Source: a virus. From it: a DNA stretch of 64,000 bases. A program made the translations under genes and the position numbers. The stretch spans positions 187,664-251,663 of the IMG/VR virus record IMGVR_UViG_3300023174_002543; one strand, given 5' to 3'. Of the stretch, positions 1-48,086 are shown one piece after another. The notes below the pieces were generated by a model that was given only the letters and a program-made list of their open reading frames with translations, was not told the DNA's origin and searched no databases. Each line of letters opens with the position of its first letter. Position 1 is the first letter of the stretch.

Positions 1-1285
1 ATGTGTCATTAAATTCACTACGGTCAAAGAATACATCTACCCAATGATTATCTACTGTAGAATGAAATAGGCTGCGCTTTCTTTTGTTATTGGGTTTATA
101 TTCACTAGGACTATCACCTAATTCAGTAAGTTGTTTTTGTGGTTTGATACGTGTTAATGTATAGATCGCGGCACTGGGATAATCTTTTCTTGTCAAATCG
201 TAACCGGTACCAGTGATATATCTTTGAAGCATTCTATCATACAGTCTAGCTCTACTGCCTGTAGGGTCATCATCTTTTTCTGCACTGAAATTCAACATCA
301 CCGGTTTACGCTTGGCAATGAATTGTTGCATGGCAGTCAACACAGTGGCAAACACACGCGGAGCATCGCCTTCTCCGGTGATCTCCATGTTTTCATCACG
401 CTCAAACTCCACCATCCAGCTGTTGTCGCCCTGGGCCATGAACAGTACAACTAATTCACTGCCGTCATCTAAGTCGGATGTAGCATGCCAGTCACCATTT
501 GTTTTTTCCCAATGAACATTATAAGGTTGGTTAAAGGCTTCTAGTATACCTTGTTCTTTAAGTTGCGGTATCGGAACATATGCTAGTATATCTTTTTTAT
601 TCATTAACTCGGCAGCGGCCCATGCTCTATGTGTACCATCTAATATATAACCTCTTGTATCTATAACAATAGGTCTCTTGTCTATATGATGCATACTATA
701 TTCACCTGCATGTCTAAAGTCTACAAATCTGCCACGACCGTATGGATCATATGTATCAGGTTCTTGTTCTGCATCATCATACTCTTGGTCAGGTATATGT
801 AGACTAGATAAAGGAACACGCTTCAATTGATATTGCGGATGACGCATTATTAATCTCTTTAAGAATCCACCACCTTGTTGGTCTTTAGGATGTATATCAC
901 CTACATAATTCCATACTTCTATATTGGATACAACATTAGAATTTGTTTCTTCCCAAACACGAACTTCTTCTCCACGGTGTTTATTCCAGAAACCTGCACC
1001 TGCATCAGTTTGGTCATAACTTCTAACAATCTTATAGCCAAGTTTTTTGATATAATCATACATCACTTTAGCAATACCTTGACCTTGATATTTTTCATTA
1101 ACCCACAGGTCTTGTGGATCTAGCTCTTTGTCATCACCCATATAGAATGTAACATGACCTAATACGTTATTACCCCAGTCATCAAGGGCATCAACCATTA
1201 ACTCATAGTCATTCTTGGTTACTTTTAGTGTTATGCCTTCGTAGTCTACTAGTTTGGCTTCTGTTATAAATTCACTTGCTCTCAT
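1..1285 (-). CDS. Partial (3' end beyond window) large protein starting MRASEFITEA (T4 CTS-like leader); GNAT acetyltransferase-like motif (KYQGQGIAKVMYDYIKKLGY), ParB/Srx-like motif (IVIDTRGYILDGTHRAWAAAELM) and a second copy of the 'EAFxQPY...ITGEGDA..FATVL' domain found at the N-terminus of the next gene
   Basis: Manual reverse translation from ATG at 1285-1283 (ORF track omits it because it runs off the window); start overlaps upstream stop as ATGA; 28-nt DNA identity with 3207-3235. Confidence 0.5.
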   Translation of the reverse strand, partial: MRASEFITEAKLVDYEGITLKVTKNDYELMVDALDDWGNNVLGHVTFYMGDDKELDPQDLWVNEKYQGQGIAKVMYDYIKKLGYKIVRSYDQTDAGAGFWNKHRGEEVRVWEETNSNVVSNIEVWNYVGDIHPKDQQGGGFLKRLIMRHPQYQLKRVPLSSLHIPDQEYDDAEQEPDTYDPYGRGRFVDFRHAGEYSMHHIDKRPIVIDTRGYILDGTHRAWAAAELMNKKDILAYVPIPQLKEQGILEAFNQPYNVHWEKTNGDWHATSDLDDGSELVVLFMAQGDNSWMVEFERDENMEITGEGDAPRVFATVLTAMQQFIAKRKPVMLNFSAEKDDDPTGSRARLYDRMLQRYITGTGYDLTRKDYPSAAIYTLTRIKPQKQLTELGDSPSEYKPNNKRKRSLFHSTVDNHWVDVFFDRSEFNDT

Positions 1286-3231
1286 AGTACTGCCAAATAT
1301 TCTTTAAATTTATTGTGTCTATCTTGTAGTCCACTTAGACCGGGATTGATTGCATTGGTTACTTCTTTTGTGTTGCTAAAATTACTAACATTGGGTCTAA
1401 CTTGATTCTTCCAGAACCATAGTGCAATTTGAGCACCTACATCTAGATTACTAGCCAGGTCGGGGTTTTTTACCAATCTATCATCTCCGAATATTTGCTT
1501 GCTTGCTCGGGTATAATTGTCACGTCCAGTCAACTGAATAAAGCCACGACCTTTAAATAGTTCTCCGTCGCCTTTTACTTTGTTACCTAATTGTCTTGCC
1601 TTGCGCGGAGCTTCATATTTGGCAAATCTTTTTTTATTGCCCACTTCCTTCATCTTACCAAAGTCCCAACTCTCATGCCGAGTCTGAGCCATGAATTGTG
1701 CCAGTTCTACTCCATTGAGTCCTGCGGCTTTAGCAGCAGTTTGTAGTGCAGCTTCAGCATCACTATTGTCACTTAATAATGTTACACCTTTTTCTTCTTC
1801 TTTGTCATCACGTGAAAACTTTGGAATCATTGATGTAAGTTTATCTTTAAATGAAGTTGTTGGTTGTGCAACTGGTTGTGCAACTTTAGTAGGCTCTTGC
1901 TTAAGAGTAGGCTTTACAGTAGCGGGCATTTTACTAATAGGTTTAGAATAATCAGGTACTATAACTTTTTGTCCTATTTCTAACTTAGTATTACGACCCA
2001 TCTTGTTGAGTTTGTATATCTCTAATGGATTTACATTGTTTTGTCTTGCTATACTGTAAACGGTATCTCCGGGTTCAACTATTTGTTGAACCATTTGAGG
2101 AGCCTTTGCATTAGCACCCATTGCCATCGCACCTGCCATAGCACCTGTTGCTAGTGCAGATTTCCAATCTTCTTCTAACTCATTTTCTGTTACACCTTGC
2201 TTACTTTCATTCATACCCTCTGCACCATAATGAGCAATTTTACCTGCTTTGTGCATGTTTTTTACTTGTTTGAATACTTTATCTAAATCATCAGTAACAC
2301 GGACTATCCACCCTTGACTAGCGATATATTTAAATGGATCACCGATGGGCATTTGTTTAATAGGCTTACTAGGATTTTCACTAAACCATTCACCTGTTGG
2401 TAATTGTCTGAAATCGCCAGCATCAAACACAGTTAAGTAAGTTTTACGACTACGCATTGCTGGCAAATCTTTTTGGTCAAAATAAACAATAGGTTGACCG
2501 TTTTGCGTAAACTCTACATAGCGTGTTTCATGTGCATTGCCTGTAGCGTACAGTGCTGTTCTACGCGGATCACCGGCAAACAATCCTTTAGTAGTGTTAG
2601 TTTTAAGATTTTTGTTTTTCCAATAACTATCGTCACCTGTATCTAAACCACTCTGACTCCAATCATCCGTATGCTTGTATGCTTTGAGGCCAGACACAAA
2701 ATCTGTGACAGGTTTAGAATCAATTCGTGTTACTGTTGCACCTTCCGCCACACCTTGTTTTAATCTACTCAATTCATATATAACTAAATCACCATTATCT
2801 GCACGAAAAGCCCTATAACCCCAGGCTTTGGCATAACGAATCACCAGTCTGTCATACAACTTGGCACGACTCTCAGGATTTGGTTGAGGCTGGTCAGGCT
2901 CATAATATATTGTTGGATCAGTTGCTTTAATAGCTGAAAAACTCAATCTTGAAGGTTTGTATTTTTTGATGTATTTTTGTATAGCGTTTAACACCGTGGC
3001 AAAGATACGCTGTGCATCACCTTCGCCTGTGACTTCTTGGCTGTTGTTTCTATAAAATTCAACCTGCACTACTTCTTTGCCTTCGTCATCTTGTTGATTG
3101 TTGAACATGATGCTTAAATTTGTTCCGTCGGGCAATTTTGTGTTTAAATCAACGTCACCGTAATCGCTTTTTTCCCATTTGCCTTTATAGGGTTGGTCAA
3201 AGGCCTCTGTTATAAATTCACTTGCTCTCAT
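1282..3231 (-). CDS. CTS-like leader (MRASEFITEAF) + duplicated N-domain + LysM (GDTVYSIARQNNVNPLEIYKLN) + C-terminal GH19 chitinase-like lysozyme domain (GRGFIQLTGRDNY); probable virion/injected peptidoglycan hydrolase. ORF-track start 3282; internal Met at 3231 preferred
   Basis: Motifs read from translation; GH19 signature GxGxIQLTGxxNY; LysM consensus. Confidence 0.6.
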   Translation of the reverse strand: MRASEFITEAFDQPYKGKWEKSDYGDVDLNTKLPDGTNLSIMFNNQQDDEGKEVVQVEFYRNNSQEVTGEGDAQRIFATVLNAIQKYIKKYKPSRLSFSAIKATDPTIYYEPDQPQPNPESRAKLYDRLVIRYAKAWGYRAFRADNGDLVIYELSRLKQGVAEGATVTRIDSKPVTDFVSGLKAYKHTDDWSQSGLDTGDDSYWKNKNLKTNTTKGLFAGDPRRTALYATGNAHETRYVEFTQNGQPIVYFDQKDLPAMRSRKTYLTVFDAGDFRQLPTGEWFSENPSKPIKQMPIGDPFKYIASQGWIVRVTDDLDKVFKQVKNMHKAGKIAHYGAEGMNESKQGVTENELEEDWKSALATGAMAGAMAMGANAKAPQMVQQIVEPGDTVYSIARQNNVNPLEIYKLNKMGRNTKLEIGQKVIVPDYSKPISKMPATVKPTLKQEPTKVAQPVAQPTTSFKDKLTSMIPKFSRDDKEEEKGVTLLSDNSDAEAALQTAAKAAGLNGVELAQFMAQTRHESWDFGKMKEVGNKKRFAKYEAPRKARQLGNKVKGDGELFKGRGFIQLTGRDNYTRASKQIFGDDRLVKNPDLASNLDVGAQIALWFWKNQVRPNVSNFSNTKEVTNAINPGLSGLQDRHNKFKEYLAVL

Positions 3232-3782
3232 AGACTCTTGCCCCAACGTGTATTGATGACATTCCAGTTTATGATCTTCCATTGTTCACGCAAATACTTC
3301 TTTTTATCGGCTCCGTAGTCAAGTGTCCAGGCATGTTCCCACCAATCAATTAATAACAATATATCATTACGAACTTCATGGTTTTTGATTGTTTTGAGTT
3401 TGCCATCACTTGCTAGATAAATCCAACCACTACCCTGTATAGTCATAGCCTCAGTCTCAATACTATCTTTGAGACCGTCGTAACTTCCATAATGCTTGTT
3501 TATAAATCCAAGCATAGGGCCGTTGGGCTTGTTATTGTTGCGTACCTCACGGAACTGAGGGAACAGAGTATTGTGTAGGAAAGCACCTGCGTAGTTAAAT
3601 TCTTTATCACCTTCACCCTTGTTATATCTATCAGCATATCCATGTGCTAGTTTACCAAAGTGCAAGTCTAAGGCACCGGCACTGAATACAGGCTTTACAT
3701 CCTTATATTCAAAATTTAACGGAATGATTTCTATATCTTGAGGCTTGTTTTTATCCTCAAGAAGGCTGATTATATCTCGCAT
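3228..3782 (-). CDS. Fe/Mn superoxide dismutase-like protein (C-terminal DWWEHAW..LDY motif = DxWEHAYY metal-ligand motif; H-x3-K-x2-H N-terminal region)
   Basis: Motif match in translation; 184 aa slightly short for SodA/B. Confidence 0.5.
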   Translation of the reverse strand: MRDIISLLEDKNKPQDIEIIPLNFEYKDVKPVFSAGALDLHFGKLAHGYADRYNKGEGDKEFNYAGAFLHNTLFPQFREVRNNNKPNGPMLGFINKHYGSYDGLKDSIETEAMTIQGSGWIYLASDGKLKTIKNHEVRNDILLLIDWWEHAWTLDYGADKKKYLREQWKIINWNVINTRWGKSL

Positions 3783-3813: not shown

Positions 3814-6153
3814 TCAGAAGCGTACTGCTAATTGAATTTGTGCTATATCAGCAACGACTCCATTTTGTCTTTGTTGACCTATTTTTAGTATCATAGTAGA
3901 GTTGTTTTGTGCGTTATACATCAATGTTCCGTAAGCAGTAGATAGATTTTTATTGTTTTGTGCTACTTCCCCGGATACTGCCCAATTTTGATTAAATTGG
4001 TGTTCATAGCGCATTCCATACTCTGTAGTATCAACTGTTTGCTTTAGGTTAGTATAGTCAACTGCTGTTAGTGAAGAACCAGTTTCCATAACATAGTCAC
4101 GTGAATTATGTTCTTTTCTAGCACCAACGAAAGGTCTGAATCCCTTCATAGCAGGGGTATATACACGCAAATGCGCCCAGGTATCCTGACCATGTGTATT
4201 AGCATTGTTACTCATACTTAATTCAGGTAATGTATGGAATGTATTATAAGTATTTTTGGATTGTCCTACATCAGTTTTAAATATCCAATCATTATGTACA
4301 TATAGGTTATAGATAGTAAGTGCTTCTTTGTATAAACTACCGCCACTGTTAGTGCCATCTAATACAGTGCTTATTCGGTTGTATTGTAAACCTAACAATG
4401 AAGAACGACTAATTCTATGCTCTGCACCAAATGTATCTATTGTTGCAGTATAACTATACCCATCTGATAAGTTAGACTTTGTTTTTGAACCATGTATATA
4501 AATGTTAATATCACGGTCATCAAAACTACGGTTAGAGATTCTATCGTCTTTAACTAAGTTTCTACTTAATGGATCACTTAATAAACTATAGTTGATTCTA
4601 GTATTGGTTTCAGATAGTTTATCCATTTGGTCAATGCGTGTAGTATAGTTTTGATCCGTTGAGGTAATCTGAACATCATCTACAATAGTTGTAGTTGTTG
4701 TCACATCATTTCTTGTAGTAACTACGGTTACAGGAGTATCTGTTGTAGTAGTTGTTGTACCATCACTCCAAGTAGTAACTGAAGTAGGAGTTGTAACGGT
4801 AGTTATAGTTACCGGTGTTGTATTAGTAACCACAGTAGTTACAGGTGTTGTACTAGTTAGTGTGGTAGTACGAATGATATTGAGTTCTCTTACACCACGC
4901 TCACCTCTAGTATTAGCATATGTAGTAACATCAACGGTTGAACCCCTTGTTATATTACTTGTTGTTACTGTTGTACCTGGTGTTTCTGTTACTACAACCG
5001 ATGATGTGCCCGGTGTAGTACTGACTACTGTAGGTGCAGGTGTAGACATACTGCTTACAGAGCCTGCGGTTCCTGGATTAGCAATAGAACCAACTAATGT
5101 ACTTGTGCTGGTTGATGTGTTATTACTATCATAGTAATAGGTAACTTCACCTATCTGTACGCTATCACATGCTAATGTACCTAATGCTGATTGACAACCT
5201 GATATTGAACCATACGTATCAATAGCCTTAATGCTAGGGAATGTTATAAAGTAATAAACATATGGATTATTATTATTAATAGTAATCATACTTGTTTGAG
5301 TATAACGACCGCTGACATTTTCTAATGTTGTACTTTGATTTGCAGTAATCTCAGTCCAAGTACGACCATCATTACTACCATACAAGGTAAACTTAGTAGG
5401 ATCTCTTGGTACAAAGTCGTTAGCAGTAGTAAATTTAATACCATTGATGACTTTACCTGCATTCAATGTAATTGTAAATCCTGCATTAGCACGGTCAAAG
5501 TTTAAATATTTCGTACCACTACTTCCGTCAACTGCCTTAGTTGCACCTTCACCACTTGGACTATTACTACTTGTAGGAGTAACAGTACTGATAATGCTAC
5601 TTGTAACTGCTGTATAGTTTACAGTAGGTGCAACAGTTTGTCCTGCGGCTAATGGAGTAGTTGAACCACCTACACTCAATGCATTAACTTGTGATAATGT
5701 TGGATTGCGTGTTCCAGTCCATGACAACCCACTAGTGTTAGCAAAACCTTGTGTCATACTAAACAACTGACCGGTGTTGTTATCATTGCCCACAAAGAAG
5801 AAATAGTCTGTGCCCATATTAATAATATGCCCAGTGCCCATTACTGCTTTTTGAACGCCTGCTGAATTATATTGAATAGCATTGTATGGATTTGTGCTGT
5901 TACCTGTAGCTACAAATTTAATATAGTCTCCGGAAGACCAACTTAGTTGACCACTTGTCCATGGAATCTTATATGCTGTTCCAGGATTTTTACTATAGAT
6001 TTGACAAGTGGTCGTATTCATACAAGCATTAACATTCCACTGACTATCTGCTATCTGTGCTTGACCAAATTGTAAATCTGTAAAATCTGCACTTGCATTT
6101 ACGCTCATGGCGGTAAGCAGAGCCATAATGGCTCCCTTTAAAAATCTTATCAT
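3814..6153 (-). CDS. Secreted/outer-membrane protein: Sec signal peptide (MIRFLKGAIMALLTAMSVNASA), F5/8 type C (discoidin) domain (KAVDGSSGTKYLNFD...), long Thr-rich linker, C-terminal autotransporter-like beta-barrel ending in ...LAVRF
   Basis: Signal peptide and terminal aromatic residue seen in translation; Thr-codon repeats 4690-5100. Confidence 0.5.
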   Translation of the reverse strand: MIRFLKGAIMALLTAMSVNASADFTDLQFGQAQIADSQWNVNACMNTTTCQIYSKNPGTAYKIPWTSGQLSWSSGDYIKFVATGNSTNPYNAIQYNSAGVQKAVMGTGHIINMGTDYFFFVGNDNNTGQLFSMTQGFANTSGLSWTGTRNPTLSQVNALSVGGSTTPLAAGQTVAPTVNYTAVTSSIISTVTPTSSNSPSGEGATKAVDGSSGTKYLNFDRANAGFTITLNAGKVINGIKFTTANDFVPRDPTKFTLYGSNDGRTWTEITANQSTTLENVSGRYTQTSMITINNNNPYVYYFITFPSIKAIDTYGSISGCQSALGTLACDSVQIGEVTYYYDSNNTSTSTSTLVGSIANPGTAGSVSSMSTPAPTVVSTTPGTSSVVVTETPGTTVTTSNITRGSTVDVTTYANTRGERGVRELNIIRTTTLTSTTPVTTVVTNTTPVTITTVTTPTSVTTWSDGTTTTTTDTPVTVVTTRNDVTTTTTIVDDVQITSTDQNYTTRIDQMDKLSETNTRINYSLLSDPLSRNLVKDDRISNRSFDDRDINIYIHGSKTKSNLSDGYSYTATIDTFGAEHRISRSSLLGLQYNRISTVLDGTNSGGSLYKEALTIYNLYVHNDWIFKTDVGQSKNTYNTFHTLPELSMSNNANTHGQDTWAHLRVYTPAMKGFRPFVGARKEHNSRDYVMETGSSLTAVDYTNLKQTVDTTEYGMRYEHQFNQNWAVSGEVAQNNKNLSTAYGTLMYNAQNNSTMILKIGQQRQNGVVADIAQIQLAVRF

Positions 6154-6241
6154 TGTAGAACTCCTTTGTTATTTTTATTATTGTTTGTCTACAATAATAT
6201 TTAACTAAAGAGTTGGTGCAATCAATGCTAGTATTTATTTT

Positions 6242-7135
6242 TTAGCAGTTGTACACGCCTGGATCCATAACTATAGTACCATTACCGTCTGAATTATACC
6301 AACTACCTCCGCCAGCACCAGCACCACTGTATGGGCTATCCGAACTACGTGATAATCCTATGAAGGTTAACTGGTGTCCTACTGCACTGTTATCTTCTGC
6401 TAATGTAGGATTTCCATACCCAAGTGATTGAATCAATGCGATACAATTTGAAACAGCAGGTAATGGTGCAGTTGGAACTGTAATTGTACTTGATGTTGGA
6501 TTATATACATACGAATTTGAAACTATGCGAATATCTGTTTGATAACCTACAAAAGGTAAACCATCTTGCGGATTTGGCCAACCATTACCAATAGTCAATG
6601 AATTAGATTCATACACTATATTGTCTGTTTGCGTACCACCGCAACGAACTCCGTTAACCCAAACGGCCTCTACATTACTATTGGCAGCATTTCTACTTAC
6701 TGCAATATGATACCAAACATTTTTTACAAAATTTGTACTAGGTACATATATATTTTGACCAACAAAATATCCATCTACTCTTATGTTTGAATTATTAACT
6801 GTTTGACTACCGTCCCAATAATTATCATTAACATATATTCCTAGATAGTGCGGTTGTCTTGTGGTATCGCTTGGACTACCTATAAAAGTACCTACGCATC
6901 TACTAGCACTATTATCCCATTTAACCCATCCCTCTACTGTAAATGAACGGGTAGTAGTTGGTCTTGCTTTACCAGTTATGAGATTATAAGGTCCGGTATA
7001 ATCTGTGTTATTTACGATAGCGTCATTTGGAGTAGAACCGGATCCACCTCCACCTCCGCCTGTGCCGGCTCCGAATGTGATCCCTTTGCCTATTGTTAGG
7101 CCTGCGTGTAATGTTAATGTTAATGGTGCAACCAT
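6242..7135 (-). CDS. Gly-rich protein with LamG/ConA-like jelly-roll features (TFTVEGWVKWD...); possible fibre/adhesin component
   Basis: Weak motif-level similarity only. Confidence 0.3.
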   Translation of the reverse strand: MVAPLTLTLHAGLTIGKGITFGAGTGGGGGGSGSTPNDAIVNNTDYTGPYNLITGKARPTTTRSFTVEGWVKWDNSASRCVGTFIGSPSDTTRQPHYLGIYVNDNYWDGSQTVNNSNIRVDGYFVGQNIYVPSTNFVKNVWYHIAVSRNAANSNVEAVWVNGVRCGGTQTDNIVYESNSLTIGNGWPNPQDGLPFVGYQTDIRIVSNSYVYNPTSSTITVPTAPLPAVSNCIALIQSLGYGNPTLAEDNSAVGHQLTFIGLSRSSDSPYSGAGAGGGSWYNSDGNGTIVMDPGVYNC

Positions 7136-7171: not shown

Positions 7172-7387
7172 TTAACGTCTACGGGTAATTCTGCCCTTAG
7201 ATAAATCATAGGGGCTAAACTCTACCTCTACAGTATCGCCTAATAATATCTTAATATCGTGCTTACGCATTCTACCACTAATATAGCCCATTATGATATT
7301 ACTACCGGGCATCTCTATCCTAAACATAGCGTTGGGTAATACTTCTACTACCTTCCCGTCTAGTTTAATACCTTCTTCTTTTGCCAT
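7172..7387 (-). CDS. infA: Translation initiation factor IF-1
   Basis: 71 aa; near-colinear with E. coli InfA (MAKE..NAMFR.E...[27 protein letters not shown]). Confidence 0.85.
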
Positions 7388-9122: not shown

Positions 9123-9899
9123 GTGGATCCATTAACACTGTTTGCGTTAGCCAACGGGGCAGTAGCCGCTGTTAAGAAAGGGTGTCAATTATATAAGGAC
9201 ATCAAAGGCGCCGCGGGTGATGTTAAAGCAGTATTAAAGGATCTTGACGAACAGTTTAGTAAAGCACATCCACCAGAAAAGCCAGCAAGTCCTGAGGCAC
9301 GTAAACAGTTCATAGAAGAAAAAAATCGTGTTATTGAATTGAATAAACGTGACGGTGAAACTGCCGGTATATACACCGAACTAGGTGAACATCTAGGTGC
9401 ATACTATGACAACTACTACAAGTGCATGGCTGTGTTTGAGGAAGAAGAAAAACGTGCAAAGACTGAGGTTTATCACGGAGATGCTAGTTTAGGTAAACGC
9501 GCCTTACAACGTGTTTTAATGCGTAAACAACTAGAACAGATGGGTGTGGAATTACGTGAGATAATGGTCTATCAAAGTCCAGCCGAATTGGGTGCGTTGC
9601 ACACTGAAGTTGAAGAAATGATGAAAGAAATGGGCAAACAACAAAAAATTCTAATTGCCCAGCAAATGCAACGTGACCGTGCCATGGCAATTAAAAGACG
9701 TAAAAAAAATGAAAATCTTTGGATACAGGCAACATGGGGAGTAGGCGCAATTATAATCATTGCAGCATTTAGCATAATGTTAGCAATGGTAGTAGAATCA
9801 CGTAGGAATTTATATCCTCAATTAGGCAATCAATGGATACCTAAAACAGAACAACAACGTAAAAAAGAAGCAGAACCACAAATATACATAGGAAGGTAA
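9123..9899 (+). CDS. Hypothetical protein with C-terminal transmembrane segment; GTG start with AAGGAG RBS
   Basis: RBS 8 nt upstream of GTG 9123; plus-strand island. Confidence 0.45.
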   Translation: MDPLTLFALANGAVAAVKKGCQLYKDIKGAAGDVKAVLKDLDEQFSKAHPPEKPASPEARKQFIEEKNRVIELNKRDGETAGIYTELGEHLGAYYDNYYKCMAVFEEEEKRAKTEVYHGDASLGKRALQRVLMRKQLEQMGVELREIMVYQSPAELGALHTEVEEMMKEMGKQQKILIAQQMQRDRAMAIKRRKKNENLWIQATWGVGAIIIIAAFSIMLAMVVESRRNLYPQLGNQWIPKTEQQRKKEAEPQIYIGR

Positions 9900-9909
9900 C
9901 CATGATAAT

Positions 9910-10068
9910 ATGGCAGATAATAATAAAAAAGAAGAATACGAATCCTTATGGGAATCATTTGTTGATATGGGAATTAAAAAGGCTTTATTACTAGTATGGT
10001 CTGTGTATATAGTAGCATATATTGCAGCCATGGCTATATTGTATTGGGCCCACAAACATTATAGATAA
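9910..10068 (+). CDS. Small (52 aa) membrane protein, not in ORF track
   Basis: Manual translation MADNNKKEEYESLWESFVDMGIKKALLLVWSVYIVAYIAAMAILYWAHKHYR. Confidence 0.3.
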   Translation: MADNNKKEEYESLWESFVDMGIKKALLLVWSVYIVAYIAAMAILYWAHKHYR

Positions 10069-10117
10069 AATAAATAATTATATGAAATTATCACTATATA
10101 CAATTAATACACATCAT

Positions 10118-10140
10118 GCCCCTATTTTGGGGCTTTTTTT
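10118..10140 (+). terminator. Rho-independent terminator GCCCC-TATTTT-GGGGC-TTTTTTT
   Basis: Perfect 5-bp GC stem + 7 T. Confidence 0.65.
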
Positions 10141-10153
10141 AGGAGGAAAACCT

Positions 10154-10291
10154 ATGAGTTGGTTTAATAGAAAACCCAGATTAAGAGAACCAAGCAGACC
10201 TTCTGCGCCACATCGCACTAGTCCAGTCTCAGAAAAAATATTAAAAGAAGCAAAAAAATTAGGTCCAAAGAAAAAACTAAAAAAAGAATGA
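10154..10291 (+). CDS. Small (45 aa) Lys/Pro-rich basic protein; AGGAGG RBS 8 nt upstream
   Basis: Terminator at 10118-10140 lies inside the longer ORF-track ORF 10022..10291, so the downstream ATG 10154 with consensus SD is preferred. Confidence 0.45.
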   Translation: MSWFNRKPRLREPSRPSAPHRTSPVSEKILKEAKKLGPKKKLKKE

Positions 10292-10344
10292 AGTATTAGT
10301 TTACCCAAGTTTTATCTTTATAAATATATACAAAGGTAACTTAT

Positions 10345-10536
10345 ATGATAACAAAAATGATATGTAGGTTGCGTAAACTTTTAATATATGTATTCAAGGA
10401 AATACCAATTATATTGTTACTTGAGATATGGACTATCGCTAGGGTGTTGTCAACCTTAACGATAGTATTCTATATTATAATTAACAATTTTTTGAAAAAT
10501 AATGTTGATGCTTGTATATTAAGTTTTTTTAAATAG
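10345..10536 (+). CDS. Hypothetical small hydrophobic protein
   Basis: ORF only. Confidence 0.25.
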   Translation: MITKMICRLRKLLIYVFKEIPIILLLEIWTIARVLSTLTIVFYIIINNFLKNNVDACILSFFK

Positions 10537-10543
10537 GCTATTT

Positions 10544-10852
10544 ATGAAATTTTTATACACACTTTTACTATTATCAGTTATGACAACTGCAAATGCTCAA
10601 GTCTCAGAAACTATTACAACCGTTATGCCATGCGGTGAAACAAAACTTATTACTGATAAGTTAAAAAACAGTTATAATGAGAACCCTATTATAATCGGTA
10701 TAGCCGATGATGAGGTTAATAGTTTAATGTCATTGTGGGCTAATACTAAAACCGGTAGTTGGACACTAGTTGCATCTAGTCAAGGACTAAGTTGCATTAT
10801 AGGTACTGGAAAAAATTTAAAGGTTGTCGAGTCTGCTGGCAAGACTATTTAA
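10544..10852 (+). CDS. Small secreted protein (signal peptide MKFLYTLLLLSVMTTANA|Q)
   Basis: Signal peptide pattern. Confidence 0.45.
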   Translation: MKFLYTLLLLSVMTTANAQVSETITTVMPCGETKLITDKLKNSYNENPIIIGIADDEVNSLMSLWANTKTGSWTLVASSQGLSCIIGTGKNLKVVESAGKTI

Positions 10853-19855: not shown

Positions 19856-20163
19856 ACTTCGCTTTCAATTTTGACTTGTAAGGGGAAACCTTCTTGTCTT
19901 GCATCAAGTGTAACTTCAATTCCCTTTTGTTCTGCAATCTCGTATGGCAATACTGCAACTACAGCACTTCCTTGTTCATGTATACCTACTGTGATATTTT
20001 GTGCGGTATCACTGGTATAATTAAAGTGATCCACTAAACTACGTACTACAAAATCCATAGAAGTTAGTTCATCATTTAAATAGATAACCTTGAACATAGG
20101 GGGTTCTTGGATAGCTAGATTAGGCTTGATTTTAATTTTTGTATCTATATGTGTTGATGCCAT
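19852..20163 (-). CDS. clpS: ClpS adaptor protein
   Basis: Colinear with E. coli ClpS core (K.I.LND..T.M.FV...L...F.....A......H..G.AV). Confidence 0.75.
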   Translation of the reverse strand: MASTHIDTKIKIKPNLAIQEPPMFKVIYLNDELTSMDFVVRSLVDHFNYTSDTAQNITVGIHEQGSAVVAVLPYEIAEQKGIEVTLDARQEGFPLQVKIESEV

Positions 20164-20224
20164 TTTAAACCCTTAAAGTTAGTAGTGCATATTTCTATAC
20201 ACTACTTTTATTTACAATAAATGT

Positions 20225-20253
20225 ATTATACTATTTAGTGTAGTTTATTGCAA
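20225..20253 (-). promoter_or_regulatory. Promoter TTGCAA-N17-TATAAT upstream of clpS
   Basis: Read directly. Confidence 0.5.
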
Positions 20254-20698
20254 TACTCTTGGGTTTTTTGTCTTCCGGGACTAAACGTTCGCATGTAATA
20301 GTCAAAATACCGTTATTATGCTCGGCATTTTTAACTTCCATGTGTTCTCCTAAGATAAATTCACGTTGGAAGTTTCTATAACTAATACCACGGTGTAGAT
20401 ATTCTTTTGGTTTATCCAAATCCTGAATTTTGTTACCAGTGACAGTAAGCATACGATTTTCTATCTCAATAGAAATTTCCCCTTGAGTAAATCCTGCAAC
20501 TGCAATTTCAATTGCAAAATTGTCCTCAGAGATTTGTACCACATTGTACGGTGGGTAATTATTATTTGTTTGTGTTGCATTCATACGCATCAATTCGTCT
20601 AACATAGAATCAAATCCTATGCCAAATCTATGAATTGCAGGTATGTCTAATGAACGTAATGATAATGTGTTTGTCATGTTTTTCTCCTTATTAAGCAA
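20231..20698 (-). CDS. Small heat-shock protein Hsp20/IbpA family (alpha-crystallin domain)
   Basis: Size and ACD pattern (GISYRNFQREF..). Confidence 0.7.
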   Translation of the reverse strand: MLNKEKNMTNTLSLRSLDIPAIHRFGIGFDSMLDELMRMNATQTNNNYPPYNVVQISEDNFAIEIAVAGFTQGEISIEIENRMLTVTGNKIQDLDKPKEYLHRGISYRNFQREFILGEHMEVKNAEHNNGILTITCERLVPEDKKPKSIAINYTK

Positions 20699-20708
20699 GT
20701 ATATGACA

Positions 20709-20760
20709 AGCGGGCCTCGAAAGCGCCCGCTATCTTTATAGAATCTTATTTAGATTCTTT
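20709..20760 (-). terminator. Two tandem hairpins (AGCGGGC..GCCCGCT and AGAATCT-TATTT-AGATTCT) immediately after dnaK stop
   Basis: Inverted repeats read directly. Confidence 0.4.
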
Positions 20761-22677
20761 TACCTCTGCATCAACCACTGTTGACTCATCAACGGGTTTT
20801 GCAGTTTCTTCTGTAGTAGCAGTTGGATTTGCTGCCTCTTCAGCCTTCTTCTTGGCTTCTTCTTCCTCATACTTAAACTTAGTAATTGGACCGATAGCCT
20901 CGTATAACTTAGGAATACTATCTTGGATTGCTTTAGGATCATCACCTTCCATAGCAGTTTCAACAGCCTTAATAGCTTCGTCTGCTTTGTTGCGTTCTTC
21001 TTCGGTGACCTTATCCTTATAAGCCTCAAAGTCTTTCTTAAAGCCAAACAATGTACCTTCAGCACTATTACGTGCTTGTACTAATTCAACATGTTTCTTA
21101 TCGGCTTCAGCATTCAACTCACCATCTTTAACCATTTGTTGAATTTCTGCTTCACTTAATCCTGAATTAGCCTTGATAGTGATTTTGTTCTCTTTACCAG
21201 TACCTTTGTCCTTAGCGGACACTTTGAGAATACCGTTAGCATCAATATCTAATGTAACTTCAATCTGTGGTTGACCACGTGGTGCTGGTGGAATGTCACC
21301 CAAACTAAACTCACCCAATACTTTATTATATTGGAATAGTTCACGTTCACCTTGACCTACTTTAATAGTAACTGCCGGCTGATTGTCATCCGCAGTACTA
21401 AAAGTTTGTGAATGTTTAGTTGGGATAGTTGTATTCTTGTTAATCAATTTAGTGAATACACCACCGACTGTTTCGATACCAAGACTCAATGGAGTAACGT
21501 CAAGTAATAGAACGTCACTACGGCCACCACTCAATACATCACCCTGAATAGCAGCACCTGCGGCAACTGCTTCGTCTGGGTTAACATCTTTGCGTGGTGC
21601 CTTGCCGAATAATGATTCAACAACTTCTTGCACCTTAGGCATACGTGTCATACCGCCAACTAAGATAACTTCATCAATGTCACCTGCACTAACATTAGCA
21701 TCTTGCATAGCCTGACGACATGGAGCCAAACTACGTTGGATTAACTCGTCAACCAATTGTTCTAATTTAGAACGTGATAGTTTAACGTTCATGTGCTTAG
21801 GACCATTTGCATCGGCTGTAATATATGGCAAGTTAACATCTGTTTGTGCTGAACTTGATAATTCAATCTTAGCCTTTTCTGCGGCTTCTTTTAGTCGTTG
21901 TAGTGCCAACACATCTTTACTTAAATCAACTCCGTTGTCTTTCTTAAACTCATCAATTAAGAAATCCATAATACGTTGGTCAAAGTCTTCACCACCTAAG
22001 AATGTATCACCGTTCGTAGACAATACTTCGATTTGTTTGTCACCGTCAACATCTGCTAATTCAATGATAGATACGTCAAATGTACCACCACCTAAGTCAT
22101 AGACTGCAATTTTACGGTCACGTTTTTCTTGTTTATCAACACCATATGCTAGTGCGGCCGCTGTTGGCTCGTTAATAATACGCAATACTTCTAAGCCTGC
22201 AATTTTACCTGCATCCTTAGTTGCTTGACGTTGACTATCGTTAAAGTAAGCAGGAACTGTAATAACTGCTTGGGTTACATCATGTCCAAGATAGTCTTCG
22301 GCAGTCTTTTTCATCTTGCGTAGTACTTCGGCACTAATTTGCGGGGGTGCTAACTTTTCATCATTAACTTGTACCCATGCATCACCGTTATCGTTCTGTA
22401 CGATTTTGTATGGCATTAGGTCAATATCTTTTTGCACAGCCTGTTCATTAAACTTACGTCCAATTAAACGTTTGCTTGCATAGATTGTGTTCTTTGGATT
22501 TGTAACTGCTTGGCGTTTGGCGCTTGCACCAACCAAGATTTCATCGTTTGCGTAGGCAACGATTGAGGGTGTAGTTCTAGCACCTTCTGAATTTTCAATT
22601 ACTTTGGGGATTCCGTTTTCGATAACGGCTACGCATGAATTTGTGGTACCCAAATCGATACCGATGACTTTGCTCAT
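20746..22677 (-). CDS. dnaK: Hsp70 chaperone DnaK
   Basis: [25 protein letters not shown], full-length 643 aa. Confidence 0.9.
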
Positions 22678-22783
22678 TTTTTTCTCCTTTAAAAAGCAAG
22701 ATGTTTATATAGACCTGACTATCAGCGTCCATATGTATTTATATATTTTACATTGTTGCGTAAAATATTTGTATATTATTGGG

Positions 22784-23002
22784 TTAATATTGTTTAGGGG
22801 GAAGTGTTTGGTCACGCAAATACTTTTTCCAACGACTCTTTGCTTTACTCTTATCTATCTTACGCTTAGTAGTGGGTTTTACAAATTCTTGTCTATCACG
22901 GATTTCTTGGATTAATCCTGACTCTAAGATTTTTTTTTTGAATTTACGTAATGCTTTTTCAACATTTCCGTCTGGTCCTACTATTACTTTTCTTCCTGGC
23001 AT
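22784..23002 (-). CDS. rpsU: Ribosomal protein bS21
   Basis: MPxxKV....ALR.FK......G...E.R.R..F.KPT..RK motif, 72 aa. Confidence 0.8.
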   Translation of the reverse strand: MPGRKVIVGPDGNVEKALRKFKKKILESGLIQEIRDRQEFVKPTTKRKIDKSKAKSRWKKYLRDQTLPPKQY

Positions 23003-24192
23003 ATGATTGGTGTTGGTTTAATAATCTGCTCCCTACTTATATTTATCTTTTTAACATTAAACTTACGATATTCACGTGTCCGATACATATGGCACATTAA
23101 TGCTTTTTCAATTTCAGTGTGCAAGCCCCTAGCACCGGTCTTTAGTGCTAGTGTATTTTCTGCTAATTGATCCAATGCATCTTCTGTAAAGGTCAAATCA
23201 ATTTCATCTAATTTAAGCAAATATTGATATTGACTGATATAGTTGTTTTTCACATCTGTAAGAATATGTATTAATTGTTCTTTAGTGAGGTTTTTTACAC
23301 TAATAGTGGTTGTAAAACGACCTACAAATTCCGGAATTAATCCAAACTTAGTCAAGTCATCAGGGGTGACTTCTGACAAATCACCTTCTATTTTACTATC
23401 TTTAATGTCTGCGGCAAATCCAATACTAGTACCATTGGTGCGTTTTGCTATAATTTCTTTTAATCCTACAAATGCACCACCTGCAATGAATAATATATTT
23501 TTAGTATCAATCTCAACCATGTCTGAACCAGGGTGTTTACGTCCACCTTGATTAGGTACACGACAAACTGTACCCTCAACTAACTTAAGCAATGCTTGCT
23601 GTACGCCCTCACCTGACACATCACGGGTAATGCTAGTACTTTCACTTTTACGGGCAATTTTGTCAATTTCATCAATGAATACGATACCCTTTTCAGCTAA
23701 AGATTTGTCTCCTCCAGCCGCGTTAAGCAACATACTAATCATTGATTCAACATCATCACCTACATATCCGGCTTCGGTTAAACTAGTAGCATCGGCAACA
23801 ACAAACGGAACCTTTAAATACTTGGCGGCAGTTTTAGCCAATAGTGTTTTACCACTACCAGTTGGACCAACTAACAATACATTGCCTTTTTGAATTTCTA
23901 AGTCTTTGGGAGGACGACTAATACGCTTATAATGATTAGTGATTGCGACACTTAACACTATTTTAGCACTATCTTGACCCACAATATGTTGGTCCAAATA
24001 TTCTTTAATACTTTCAGGATCATATTGGGGTTCTTCTTGTGGACCTGAGGTTTCATCAACTATTAATTCTTGGCAAAGTTCAACACAATCGCTACAGATT
24101 GCTACACTTTCACCTACGATTAATTTTTTGACTGTTTCTTTACTAGTACCACAAAAACTACAATGAGTGAGTTGTTTATTTTCTTCTGTCAT
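22984..24192 (-). CDS. clpX: ClpX ATP-dependent unfoldase (N-terminal C4 zinc-binding domain CSFCG..CSDC; Walker A GPTGSGKT)
   Basis: ZBD + AAA+ motifs. Confidence 0.85.
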
Positions 24193-25886: not shown

Positions 25887-27686
25887 TTAGATGGTATTTT
25901 TGTCTTCTTTTATGTATTGGGCAATTGCGTCTTGTTCAGCAGGAGTCAAATGATCCGGATCATATTCTCCGCTAGCAATTTTCTCAATTAAATGTTGGAT
26001 ATAACCATCTTCAGATAGATGACTATCAGTATTTTCACGGTTTACTTCTATCCATTTTCTACCGTTAAATTTAAAAATTCTATGCGGAATAACATCAATA
26101 CGGGTAAACATATCACCTAAAGCTGGTACTTTGGGAAAATTATCACCGAATGTAACGTTTGGTTCAGTAGGATCATCAACTTTTAATTTTAAATCATTGA
26201 CAAGATGTAAGTCGGGGCGCAAATCAGAGAGAACACTTTTATGCATTCTTTTCCCACCGTATACTATGTAATCGCCGGGACTGTCTTTTAGTAGATTACT
26301 TAACTCAATGTCTTCTTCTTTTGGAGCTTCAAAAGCAGGTCCTGTTTGTACCCATTCGCCTGTTGTTAAATCTTTAAAGCCTTCAAAGTTAGGTGTATCA
26401 TCCTTTTTAACTTCTGGTTCCTCTATTTGCTCACGTATAGTCATAGTGTGTTGCTTTAAGAAACCTACAGATACTGAATCATCCTCTTTAGTTGTAATAA
26501 CTGGGTCTGTATAATCTGGTTCGTGATCCTCTTCTACAAACTTGTATTCAATATCAATTGCAGGTGTTTTAGACGTAACAGGTTCTTCTACCTTTTCTTC
26601 AACTACAGGAATGTTGTCAGCAGGATTTGAGTTAGTGACTACCAGTTGAATAGGTTCAGAACCATCAAAGGGCCCATCTAATACATCACACTCTTTATTT
26701 GGACAGAATAATCCAATGCCAGGTGCCTTAACAAGAGGAGTATTGCAAATATGGCAATTAATTGGATCATCTAATTCTTTAACTACATCTTCATCTATCG
26801 GAAATAATTCGTCTTTGTTAGTAAGTTCACCTGTTGGTAAATCTTCTTTGGCACGTTCACGTAATGCCGCTAGTGCTTCCTCATTAATTGGACCGTCATC
26901 TTGTTCGTATTTGTGTTTGTCTTCTTTTTCTTCTTTAAGCCAACCAAATGTCATTTGAGCCGCTAATAGCATAACAATTGCTAACGGGTCAAACACAATA
27001 ACAATAAGAATAATAACCCAAGTTACTGCACGTTCTAACACATTAGTATCAGGGTTGTCACCATAGACAAATGCCGCTATGTACTTGATTGGCCCTACTT
27101 CTGCTTCAACCTTACGAACCTCGGCTGCGATGGGTGCCCTTTCTTCGCTAAGGGCGGCAACAGTTTTCTGTTCGGTCGCAATCTCAGATTGAAGGCGGAC
27201 ACGTTCTTTTTGCTGTGCTCTTCGGATTTGAACAGCTTTCTCGGCACCTTTTTCATCATTGCTTCGACCCATAACTTGGTCCACAGCCTCATCCATTTGT
27301 TTAAGCGCCTTCCGGTTCGCATCTATGTTGTCCTTTGCTGTTTTGATTTTTTCGTCATATACTGCAATCTTACTTTGTACATCACCACTTACTAATGTTT
27401 GGTCACTATGTGCTTTGCTTAAAAAACCAAAAATACCTAAACTAGTAATAACCATTAAAATAACAACGGCAATAATAGCATATGACTTCATTAAAAATGG
27501 AGCTTGTGTCCATCGTGCTTTTACCCAACTTGCAATAACAAGTTTACCTACCTCAAGACTGATACCCATAACCATGATAGGTATTGCCGCGGCAGAGAAT
27601 ATCGCAACCAAACCTGCGACAGAATAATAAATGGCAACCGCTGAAATAGTTAAGCCGGAAAGTAGGAGTAATATAGCTAGGATCAT
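25887..27686 (-). CDS. Membrane protein (3-4 TM helices), long coiled coil, C4 zinc ribbon (CHICNT..CPNKEC), large C-terminal domain
   Basis: Hydrophobic segments and Cys pairs. Confidence 0.4.
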   Translation of the reverse strand: MILAILLLLSGLTISAVAIYYSVAGLVAIFSAAAIPIMVMGISLEVGKLVIASWVKARWTQAPFLMKSYAIIAVVILMVITSLGIFGFLSKAHSDQTLVSGDVQSKIAVYDEKIKTAKDNIDANRKALKQMDEAVDQVMGRSNDEKGAEKAVQIRRAQQKERVRLQSEIATEQKTVAALSEERAPIAAEVRKVEAEVGPIKYIAAFVYGDNPDTNVLERAVTWVIILIVIVFDPLAIVMLLAAQMTFGWLKEEKEDKHKYEQDDGPINEEALAALRERAKEDLPTGELTNKDELFPIDEDVVKELDDPINCHICNTPLVKAPGIGLFCPNKECDVLDGPFDGSEPIQLVVTNSNPADNIPVVEEKVEEPVTSKTPAIDIEYKFVEEDHEPDYTDPVITTKEDDSVSVGFLKQHTMTIREQIEEPEVKKDDTPNFEGFKDLTTGEWVQTGPAFEAPKEEDIELSNLLKDSPGDYIVYGGKRMHKSVLSDLRPDLHLVNDLKLKVDDPTEPNVTFGDNFPKVPALGDMFTRIDVIPHRIFKFNGRKWIEVNRENTDSHLSEDGYIQHLIEKIASGEYDPDHLTPAEQDAIAQYIKEDKNTI

Positions 27687-47266: not shown

Positions 47267-48086
47267 TCTTTAATAAATCCTTAATATCATAAAGATGTTT
47301 CATGTACTCACTAACATTTCCCAACACACTAACTGCAATATCACCTTCTCTACGAGGTCCATACTTAACGTCAATGGTAAGGTTGTTAACTGTTTCAAAT
47401 ATACTAACCATTTCTTTAACGGTATAACCTACACCATGACCCAAACATTCAATATTATTGCTAGGTGTTTCTATGGCAGTACGCAATGCATCGCATATTT
47501 CATTCACGTGTACATAATCACGTACACAAGTACCATCCCAACTTTCATTGTAGTTTTTCCCAAAGATAGTAAATTCACCAGTGTCTTTTGCCTTGAATAA
47601 ATTGTACATTAATCCATCAGGGTTAGTAGGTGCAAATCCATCACTACCAATTACATTGTAAAATCTAAAGATAGTATATGGTATGTTTCTGTATTCACAC
47701 ATTTCTTTAATACAATCTTCAGCCGCTTTCTTACTTGTACCGTATGCGCTTTCGCATTTTTCGGCTGCACCTGTACTAGCAAAAATAAAATTATCTGTAT
47801 CTACCCAAGTTAATAGATTCAATGAACCAATCATATTAGTCAAATAATAATCAGTGGGTGTCCTTTGACTTTCACCTACATTGACTAATGCGGCTAGATG
47901 TATAACTGCATCAAAATGTTCTTTCTTTAATGTAAACTGGTTTTTGATATTTCTATTAAAGTGTCTACTAACTTTATATTGAGGATCTTTGATATCTAAT
48001 CCCACAATCTCATACTCACCATCTAACATCTTACAAAGATGTGATCCTATGTAACCACTGTTACCTGTTATTAATATTTTTTTCAT
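47256..48086 (-). CDS. NAD-dependent epimerase/dehydratase (short-chain Rossmann; ILITGNSGYIGSHL)
   Basis: GxxGxxG N-terminus, YxxxK implied. Confidence 0.6.
   Translation of the reverse strand: MKKILITGNSGYIGSHLCKMLDGEYEIVGLDIKDPQYKVSRHFNRNIKNQFTLKKEHFDAVIHLAALVNVGESQRTPTDYYLTNMIGSLNLLTWVDTDNFIFASTGAAEKCESAYGTSKKAAEDCIKEMCEYRNIPYTIFRFYNVIGSDGFAPTNPDGLMYNLFKAKDTGEFTIFGKNYNESWDGTCVRDYVHVNEICDALRTAIETPSNNIECLGHGVGYTVKEMVSIFETVNNLTIDVKYGPRREGDIAVSVLGNVSEYMKHLYDIKDLLKIDK

Follow-up and report, generated by a model that had tools for sequence, protein, structure and literature searches.

Classical monomeric (type Va) autotransporters end in an aromatic beta-signal that is recognized by the beta-barrel assembly machinery (BAM), and a beta-helical passenger with an autochaperone region is typical of them, though not universal. 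Their passengers are often released from the cell, as with the SPATEs and NalP. The autotransporter Ag43 (flu) of Escherichia coli lies in a cryptic prophage, CP4-44, and in bacteria curli act together with autotransporter adhesins to bring about aggregation. Among phages, the curli secretion genes csgG and csgF have been described in pelagimyophages and in the Methylophilales phage Melnitz; the corresponding papers found no curli substrates and no autotransporter, and what curli genes do in phages has been called a mystery in the literature since 2020 (PMC7029224, PMC9004378). In the literature on phage autotransporters, we found only trimeric YadA-like virion proteins and no paper analyzing type Va export by a phage. 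Already known, therefore, are phage curli genes, which are published, and phage autotransporter barrels, which stand in databases under automatic names. Here we analyze a 64,000-nucleotide stretch of viral DNA (IMG/VR record IMGVR_UViG_3300023174_002543, positions 187,664 to 251,663; hereafter, the window) and, within it, a single gene on the minus strand at positions 3814 to 6153. We put at roughly 0.6 the probability that this gene encodes a type Va autotransporter of a huge phage in a diderm host, displaying a glycan-binding head for adhesion or surface coating.

The gene is complete, an exact open reading frame of 779 codons plus stop at 3814 to 6153, with an ATG start and a strong Shine-Dalgarno sequence, AAGGAG, read 7 nt 5' of it (6161 to 6166, minus strand). 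A protein identical to its 779-amino-acid (aa) product (P0001) is carried by a 367,104-bp JGI contig. From N to C terminus, the product consists of a Sec-type signal peptide, an N-terminal passenger domain (N-domain), a discoidin/CBM32 domain, a Thr-rich stalk of ∼150 aa, and a C-terminal module of 282 aa ending in Phe. Simple rules and homolog N termini place the signal peptide at residues 1 to 22 (6088 to 6153, minus strand). By this rule-based reading, the segment MIRFLKGAIMALLTAMSVNASA has two basic and no acidic residues, a hydrophobic core with a 10-residue Kyte-Doolittle maximum of 2.22, and A-S-A at positions −3 to −1, after which cleavage is predicted. Every full-length homolog read had an equivalent N terminus, with a conserved D-[FI]-T-D motif after it. 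An earlier reading of the letters alone (the original prediction) had proposed a Sec signal peptide, and the basic residues, core, A-S-A site and homolog N termini are all as expected of one. Direct comparisons of the gene with reference collections returned little: the region had no megablast match among 50,697 phage records, the whole protein matched nothing in the PDB by phmmer and no family in PHROGs, and PADLOC defense models matched neither the protein nor its neighbors. Promoter and terminator scans around the gene gave counts equal to shuffle expectation.

To place the C-terminal module, we relied on its homologs and on structure prediction. A deep homolog search recovered 1,263 relatives, about 70 of them full length (∼775 aa), and the C-terminal 282 aa of 25 representatives, 31 to 81% identical to the window protein, were aligned. 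The AlphaFold2 (AF2) model of the module built on this 25-sequence alignment was confident (pLDDT, 94.3; pTM, 0.86) and contained one helix followed by 12 long strands, the strands forming a predicted outer-membrane barrel translocator at residues 532 to 779 (3817 to 4560, minus strand). Compared with the PDB by Foldseek, the model matched NalP first (1uyn; template modeling [TM] score, 0.83; root mean square deviation, 2.8 Å; E = 3e-13), followed by EstA, AaaA, Hbp, EspP, AIDA-I, and BrkA. The top set consisted entirely of type Va translocators, with FadL and porin-type barrels far below. The Pfam autotransporter beta-domain PF03797 was matched by 18 of the 25 aligned homologs (best E, 2e-16) and by 13 of 32 further members of the barrel subfamily, and the only sequence-profile match of the family barrel in the PDB fell in the EstA barrel.

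Two further elements of the module are those of a translocator. DSSP applied to the model (model residues 12 to 26) assigns a predicted alpha-helix to residues 509 to 523 (4585 to 4629, minus strand), directly before the barrel, and this helix carries a conserved T-R-I-D-Q...N motif. Superposition of the whole model on NalP (TM, 0.83) takes in the pore helix of NalP; by that superposition the helix would lie in the lumen, as expected of the linker that spans the pore. The C terminus itself (...DIAQIQLAVRF, with its terminal Phe; 3817 to 3846, minus strand) reads as a beta-signal by family statistics. The last residue is Phe or Trp in 58 of 70 long forms, and 11 more end in F-N. Among the 58, positions −1, −3 and −5 are hydrophobic in 100% and −7 in 97%, and position −4 is Lys or Arg in 54. 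Because the model has 12 strands, its best PDB matches are exclusively type Va translocators and 18 of 25 homologs match PF03797, sequence and predicted structure together argue that this is a genuine autotransporter of the classical monomeric (type Va) kind. Trimeric (Vc) and inverse (Ve) types were considered and rejected: no YadA-like or intimin-like Pfam match was found, and in the AF2 model the barrel is C-terminal, with 12 strands in one chain. The original prediction had called the last ∼280 aa an outer-membrane barrel ending in Phe, and the AF2 model (pLDDT, 94.3; 12 strands; TM to NalP, 0.83) upholds that call; the outcome named as its refutation, a non-barrel fold such as a fiber trimerization domain, was looked for and a type Va barrel appeared instead.

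The barrel also bears on whether the protein belongs to the virion, as a tail fiber or capsid decoration whose discoidin domain binds the host and whose signal peptide and barrel have been misread. Phage fibers and capsids often bear lectin-like and Ig-like domains, and a ConA-like protein is encoded just upstream. Yet the confident barrel model matches only outer-membrane translocators, the signal peptide and beta-signal are conserved family-wide, no PHROG structural family is matched, and the gene is surrounded by genes for chaperones, translation, and replication, the 64 kb containing none for the virion. On the barrel model, the conserved signals and the gene setting, we rejected a virion role and give it next to no credence.

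The passenger resembles a binding head. In an AF2 model of residues 23 to 347 (pLDDT, 88), it folds into two beta-rich domains of beta-sandwich type. The first, the N-domain (residues 23 to 165; 5659 to 6087, minus strand), holds the cysteine pair Cys44-Cys50. The second (residues 166 to 347; 5113 to 5658, minus strand), with the pair Cys320-Cys329, is a discoidin (F5/8 type C)/CBM32-like domain: its core at residues 194 to 286 matches PF00754 at 40.0 bits against a cutoff of 28.2 (E = 5.1e-10). Foldseek comparison with CBM32 structures, some of them solved with galactose or GalNAc, gave target-normalized TM scores of 0.66 to 0.76, and the best small-domain matches were the Bacteroides fragilis F5/8 type C protein 3nng (0.76) and the Clostridium perfringens CpGH89 CBM32-5 with galactose (0.73). 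The discoidin domain of the original prediction is thus confirmed by a Pfam match above cutoff and by the CBM32 beta-sandwich fold. From the modeled fold, it is probably a CBM32-type glycan-binding domain, a lectin of the galactose/GalNAc class. The N-domain occurs in the family as three sequence types, ∼30% identical to each other and each well conserved internally. A homolog (31% identity; E = 6e-11) belongs to an adhesin-like, repeat-rich secreted protein of 1,202 aa encoded by a bacterial metagenome-assembled genome (MAG). That protein (locus L126, 3952 to 7560, on a 2.26-Mb contig labeled "Mycobacterium sp.") is the sole cellular occurrence of the N-domain that we saw; its discoidin domain comes first and the N-domain homolog ∼300 aa later, the opposite order to the phage passenger.

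Cysteine placement agrees with export through a barrel. The window protein has four Cys, placed as two close pairs (44/50 and 320/329); in the passengers of the family, all 176 Cys pairs are 1 to 14 residues apart, and the stalk and barrel are free of Cys in 70 long forms. According to a published rule (PMC3546941), the only disulfides compatible with an autotransporter passenger are those linking Cys that lie close together, and the spacing in this family fits it.

Between head and barrel lies a Thr/Val-rich stalk at residues 348 to 497 (4663 to 5112, minus strand), recognized by composition and a shuffle test and containing a W-S-D-G...T-P-V motif. Residues 346 to 500 include 57 Thr, 23 Val, and 17 Ser among 155 residues (∼37% Thr), in agreement with the ∼150-residue Thr/Val linker of the original prediction. 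Its further observation of nucleotide repeats at 4690 to 5100 held in part. Repeats exist, but they are only short, degenerate direct repeats (19 to 22 nt, 74 to 91% identity) with a single weak 9-nt array at 4955 to 4990 within the Thr-rich coding region, and by their sequence they appear to reflect the repeated coding of Thr, Val, and Pro, not a clean tandem array. Aligned against composition-preserving shuffles, the stalk scored z = 22 to 43 within the family and 3.9 against cyanophage DSL-LC03, which rules out a mere low-complexity spacer. It adjoins the barrel module and is conserved throughout the barrel subfamily whatever the passenger (consensus, ...TP-TT-TT-TTP-T...T-Y-S-D-G-T...G-T...S-T-R-I-D-Q).

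How widely this stalk and barrel occur was examined by running the barrel profile exhaustively against 1.84 billion cluster representatives. This search yielded 206 proteins at E ≤ 1e-3, 57 of them at E ≤ 1e-30, with lengths of 450 to 990 aa; a homolog search with the profile added only 7 proteins, and a related-locus search with the window's barrel alone returned one locus, already known. Of 40 members examined, 39 had a signal-peptide-like N terminus (the remaining one looks 5' truncated), and the same 40 have a Thr-rich segment ahead of the barrel and a terminal aromatic residue. Their passengers vary and hold no Pfam domains. Divergent members lie in the same genomic slot as the window gene, described below, or in other phage-like contexts. 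All informative contexts sampled were phage-like, and no clearly bacterial context was seen, although no scan of bacterial genomes used the barrel itself as query. The stalk-plus-barrel unit is, so far, a small subfamily known from phage contexts only and shared with freshwater cyanomyophages.

Since many type Va passengers, such as the SPATEs and NalP, are released, the head might instead be cleaved off and act, free of the cell, as a glycan-binding protein or enzyme that conditions matrix or scavenges, and an N-domain with no Pfam or PDB relative leaves room for such an activity. However, Pfam detected no protease or catalytic domain in the 779-aa protein, the conserved long stalk suggests tethering, and the curlin-fused sister forms described next would be bound to fibers. 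We therefore regard a released effector as quite improbable.

In relatives of the window phage, the same passenger is attached to different export modules. Most relatives share the gene order csgF-csgG-curlin-FecR-[passenger gene]-CHASE2 cyclase-DD-carboxypeptidase, and in ∼60 of 80 loci the passenger is fused to a curlin-like C terminus rather than to stalk and barrel. Some relatives carry the barrel form behind the csg genes; others, like the window, carry it without csg genes nearby. In a third form, of ∼1,100 to 1,160 aa, the passenger is followed by long beta-helix-like G-T-x-x-N repeats and by another barrel, whose relation to the window barrel is marginal (hhalign probability, 48%); this form was located at L036 (9932 to 13423) and also in L035, L038, and L047. 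Identities differ by domain: the N-domain of the window protein is 80 to 86% identical to curlin-type proteins and 31% identical to most barrel-type proteins. Per-domain identities across the passenger forms are a mosaic. Given that the same head occurs on curlin repeats beside csgF and csgG, what matters appears to be having the head outside the cell, whichever export route is used. The window protein itself was considered and rejected as a curli (type VIII) substrate, as it has no curlin repeats and the window has no csgG or csgF homolog.

The curli cassette of these relatives was read most fully on a 353-kb JGI contig (locus L001, 3235 to 7780 and 10416 to 13328), where it comprises CsgF, CsgG, two curlin-repeat proteins, and a FecR-domain protein; complete-looking cassettes are also present in about 60 IMG/VR loci among L006 to L084. 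The genes that follow the passenger gene there encode a CHASE2 protein with a class III nucleotide cyclase and a PBP5-like DD-carboxypeptidase. In locus L181, a 447-aa PA14-domain protein and a periplasmic phosphate-binding-like protein (5401 to 6744 and 9438 to 10445) accompany csg genes and an autotransporter, a hint that the slot holds additional cargo for the surface or periplasm.

The Sec, BAM insertion, and threading steps of the mechanism that we propose are established knowledge of type V secretion; for this protein they are drawn from sequence and structure prediction only. The Sec signal would direct the protein to the periplasm, and host BAM would recognize the Phe-terminated beta-signal and insert the 12-stranded barrel into the outer membrane of the host. 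With the helix at residues 509 to 523 in the barrel pore, the N-terminal part would be threaded outside, and the infected cell would then show a two-domain head (the N-domain plus the CBM32-type lectin domain) on a 150-aa Thr-rich stalk. Binding of this head to glycans on neighboring cells, particles, or matrix would render the infected cell adhesive or coated. Export and surface display of the passenger are thus predictions that follow from the type V pathway. The original prediction had seen a host-surface protein made during infection, and with a predicted signal peptide, a lectin-type passenger, and a modeled type Va barrel, this appears to be the best reading.

We infer the biological role, adhesion and aggregation versus shielding against superinfection, from the kind of head and its associations. 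Adhesion or coating is preferred because the head is of lectin type, because the N-domain recurs in a bacterial adhesin-like protein, because sister forms carry the head on curli subunits, and because curli and autotransporter adhesins act jointly in bacterial aggregation. An aggregation role termed "sibling capture" has been proposed for phage curli genes (PMC7029224). The main rival, which the original prediction had raised along with cell aggregation, is shielding, in which the lectin head would mask host surface glycans or trap competitor or progeny virions, to the benefit of a long huge-phage infection cycle or by preventing the loss of progeny on infected cells and debris. It draws on the same surface-display evidence, and curli polymers do bind and trap phage T7 and protect embedded cells (PMC8346279); three N-domain types at ∼30% identity, each conserved internally, are also what specificity classes in an arms race would look like. 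Nevertheless, a 150-aa stalk puts the head far from the membrane, which is better suited to outward reach than to receptor capping, and no PADLOC model of defense or exclusion was matched. The curli association in relatives leans toward adhesion or a surface coat, and we consider shielding unlikely in either form.

Several observations weigh against an adhesive type Va autotransporter. Searched alone against Pfam and NCBIfam at E ≤ 10, the last 254 aa of the window protein gave only a spurious VCPO_N match; the assignment of this C terminus to the autotransporter family rests on transitive homology and predicted structure. No beta-helix and no recognizable autochaperone domain appear in the AF2 model of the passenger. 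The N-domain (residues 23 to 165) has no Pfam or PDB relative, the best E value of its profile against the PDB being a meaningless 0.1. By tblastn, the window contains no homolog of csgG, csgF, CHASE2, or PepS11, the genes that surround the passenger in most relatives. Finally, the curli-encoding phage Melnitz produced no clumping in culture (PMC9004378), so that an aggregating role is no more than a proposal for any phage surface island.

The genomic setting is that of a phage lineage. A total of 113 IMG/VR loci encode the whole passenger, many on contigs of 200 to 383 kb, and the window phage belongs to a lineage of roughly 350-kb phages. The window encodes DnaK, a ClpX-like ATPase, HSP20, ClpS, S21, IF-1, DNA ligase, DNA polymerase, a 5'-3' exonuclease, and a UvdE homolog; neither virion genes nor, by scan, tRNA genes were found within its 64 kb. 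The DnaK-HSP20-ClpS block upstream of the autotransporter gene is syntenic in relatives (DnaK, 75 to 79% identical), and the gene occupies a conserved slot downstream of this block. Its immediate neighbors in the window (a ConA-like protein, IF-1, an Fe/Mn superoxide dismutase, and a LysM+GH19 protein) are not beside it in relatives, and the gene therefore sits in a variable island.

Cellular-looking genes (DnaK, ClpX, IF-1, S21, superoxide dismutase) and the lack of a virion gene in 64 kb could also mean that the stretch is bacterial DNA or a misassembled contig bearing an ordinary bacterial adhesin. This is hardly credible, and we rejected it, given 113 syntenic IMG/VR loci on recurrent contigs of ∼330 to 383 kb, PHROG-specific families together with a phage-type DNA polymerase and ligase in the window, contexts dense with small open reading frames, and no bacterial match to the architecture: across 185,579 bacterial species genomes the full arrangement was absent, the only matches being to the discoidin segment, plus the one two-domain MAG. 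The same absence, with the conserved phage slot, leaves the original suggestion of a horizontally acquired bacterial adhesin without support.

Other genes of the window were read alongside. The ClpX-like ATPase, S21, DnaK, HSP20, and ClpS genes lie at 19858 to 24192 (minus strand), with IF-1 apart at 7172 to 7387 (minus strand); the DnaK is ∼68% identical to proteobacterial-type DnaK in database records. Directly upstream of the autotransporter gene, at 6242 to 7135 (minus strand), is the gene for the 297-aa ConA-like/Laminin_G_3 protein, which has a Gly-rich N terminus and no signal peptide. The Fe/Mn superoxide dismutase gene follows at 3228 to 3782, 31 nt downstream on the same strand. Two genes downstream, at 1282 to 3282 (minus strand), a 666-aa protein combines LysM with a GH19 chitinase/endolysin-like C terminus and has a subthreshold DUF6886 match in its N-terminal half; its listed start overlaps the dismutase gene, and the true start is probably a Met at ∼3228. 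The gene at 10544 to 10852 (plus strand) encodes a small protein of 102 aa that has a signal peptide and conserved Cys and shows distant homology (pairwise E = 2e-5) to the product of a small gene immediately preceding that for the passenger in L001, L005, and L046. Two proteins (48083 to 49435 and 57942 to 59135, both minus strand) gave weak subthreshold matches to GT1-family glycosyltransferases; that they glycosylate the Thr-rich stalk is pure speculation. A 599-aa protein (25887 to 27686, minus strand) has an N-terminal subthreshold tetraspanin-like match (25.9 versus 32.1 bits), which probably reflects no more than a multipass membrane segment.

The surroundings of the barrel subfamily also raise a function in the envelope or in lysis, in which the barrel protein would remodel or weaken the outer membrane late in infection. 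Members of the subfamily adjoin peptidoglycan hydrolases in unrelated backbones (DSL-LC03, DSL-LC02, L185, and the window), a DD-carboxypeptidase follows the passenger gene in the jumbo lineage, and it has been speculated that phage CsgGF acts in the timing of lysis (PMC9004378). But the pore is plugged by a helix in the model, and a conserved lectin head and stalk would be needless for membrane disruption. We know of no lysis mechanism that uses an autotransporter. We judge a lytic function very improbable. A related barrel gene with another passenger stands right after an endolysin or lysozyme gene at L165 (5146 to 6795; DSL-LC03), L166 (3921 to 5780; DSL-LC02), and L185 (1025 to 3073; a metagenomic contig).

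Together, these data suggest that these phages deliberately re-dress the surface of infected cells. If the display of an adhesive head is correct, lytic huge phages would go beyond metabolic reprogramming and install adhesin or lectin display through the host Sec and BAM pathways. A broader and more tentative proposal, which we hold as possible rather than probable, is that ∼350-kb aquatic phages possess a dedicated "cell-surface island" (csgF-csgG, curlin subunits, FecR-like protein, variable surface protein, CHASE2 cyclase, and DD-carboxypeptidase) in which one lectin-type head has been recombined onto three outer-membrane export modules, namely curlin repeats (type VIII), the Thr-stalk autotransporter unit, and a second autotransporter barrel; the resulting sticky or coated "virocells" would capture hosts or exclude rivals. 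Were this so, the unexplained phage curli genes would gain a concrete cargo and purpose. Because the sister genes carry this head on curlin and exchange that part for an autotransporter module, the phage curli genes would seem to serve the display of a binding head and not to form a bare pore or pinholin. New here are the Thr-stalk autotransporter subfamily, so far from phage contexts only; its lectin-type cargo; and the interchange of the same cargo between curli and autotransporter export modules within one huge-phage lineage. Directly testable predictions concern the binding of glycans and, in cells expressing the gene, aggregation and the adsorption of phages. As a compact unit found with diverse passengers, the stalk and barrel could also serve as a natural surface-display scaffold.

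Compared with characterized autotransporters, the window protein is closest in fold to NalP of Neisseria meningitidis (1uyn), with which it shares a helix and 12-stranded C-terminal barrel of ∼280 residues and an aromatic beta-signal (TM, 0.83). Sequence identity is only 9%, however, and the NalP passenger is a released subtilisin, whereas that of the window is a phage-borne, lectin-type head on a Thr-rich stalk. EstA of Pseudomonas aeruginosa (3kvn), the third-best fold match and the only PDB profile match, likewise has a globular, non-beta-helical passenger, and an autochaperone region is absent there too; unlike the window protein, it carries an attached GDSL esterase joined directly through the helix, with neither Thr-rich stalk nor lectin domain. 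Ag43 and AIDA-I of E. coli (AIDA-I transport unit, 4mee, among the fold matches) are type Va surface adhesins that act in aggregation and biofilm alongside curli. They differ in having a long beta-helix with an autochaperone and in self-association, in contrast to two small beta-sandwich domains and presumed glycan binding here.

Among phage-encoded systems, the csgG/csgF genes of pelagimyophages and Melnitz likewise place outer-membrane secretion machinery in lytic aquatic phages (PMC7029224, PMC9004378). Akin to these curli genes, relatives of the window have csgF-csgG-curlin-FecR directly upstream of the homologous gene; they differ in that curlin-repeat proteins, and a lectin head fused to curlin, are encoded as well, and the window phage itself would use type V export instead. 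The nearest barrels are in proteins known by automatic annotation only, for which we found no functional study in the literature. WJZ47857.1 of Synechococcus phage DSL-LC03 is homologous in stalk, helix, and barrel (pairwise E = 9e-21; 27% identity; alignment from the stalk W-S-D-G), and three BFVD entries annotated as autotransporter beta-domain from uncultured Caudovirales phages (A0A6J5R861, A0A6J5L9T3, and A0A6J5KUW0) match at query-normalized TM scores of 0.72 to 0.78. All four bear other passengers, without a discoidin domain. DSL-LC03 and DSL-LC02 are cultured freshwater cyanomyophages that combine another passenger with a related barrel module, and DSL-LC03 shares the Thr-stalk as well. 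Finally, the discoidin domain has the same beta-sandwich as bacterial CBM32 modules (C. perfringens GH89 CBM32-5, 4a41; B. fragilis, 3nng; TM, 0.73 to 0.76), but whereas those usually accompany glycoside hydrolases, the module of the window protein has no enzyme domain beside it and is borne on an autotransporter.

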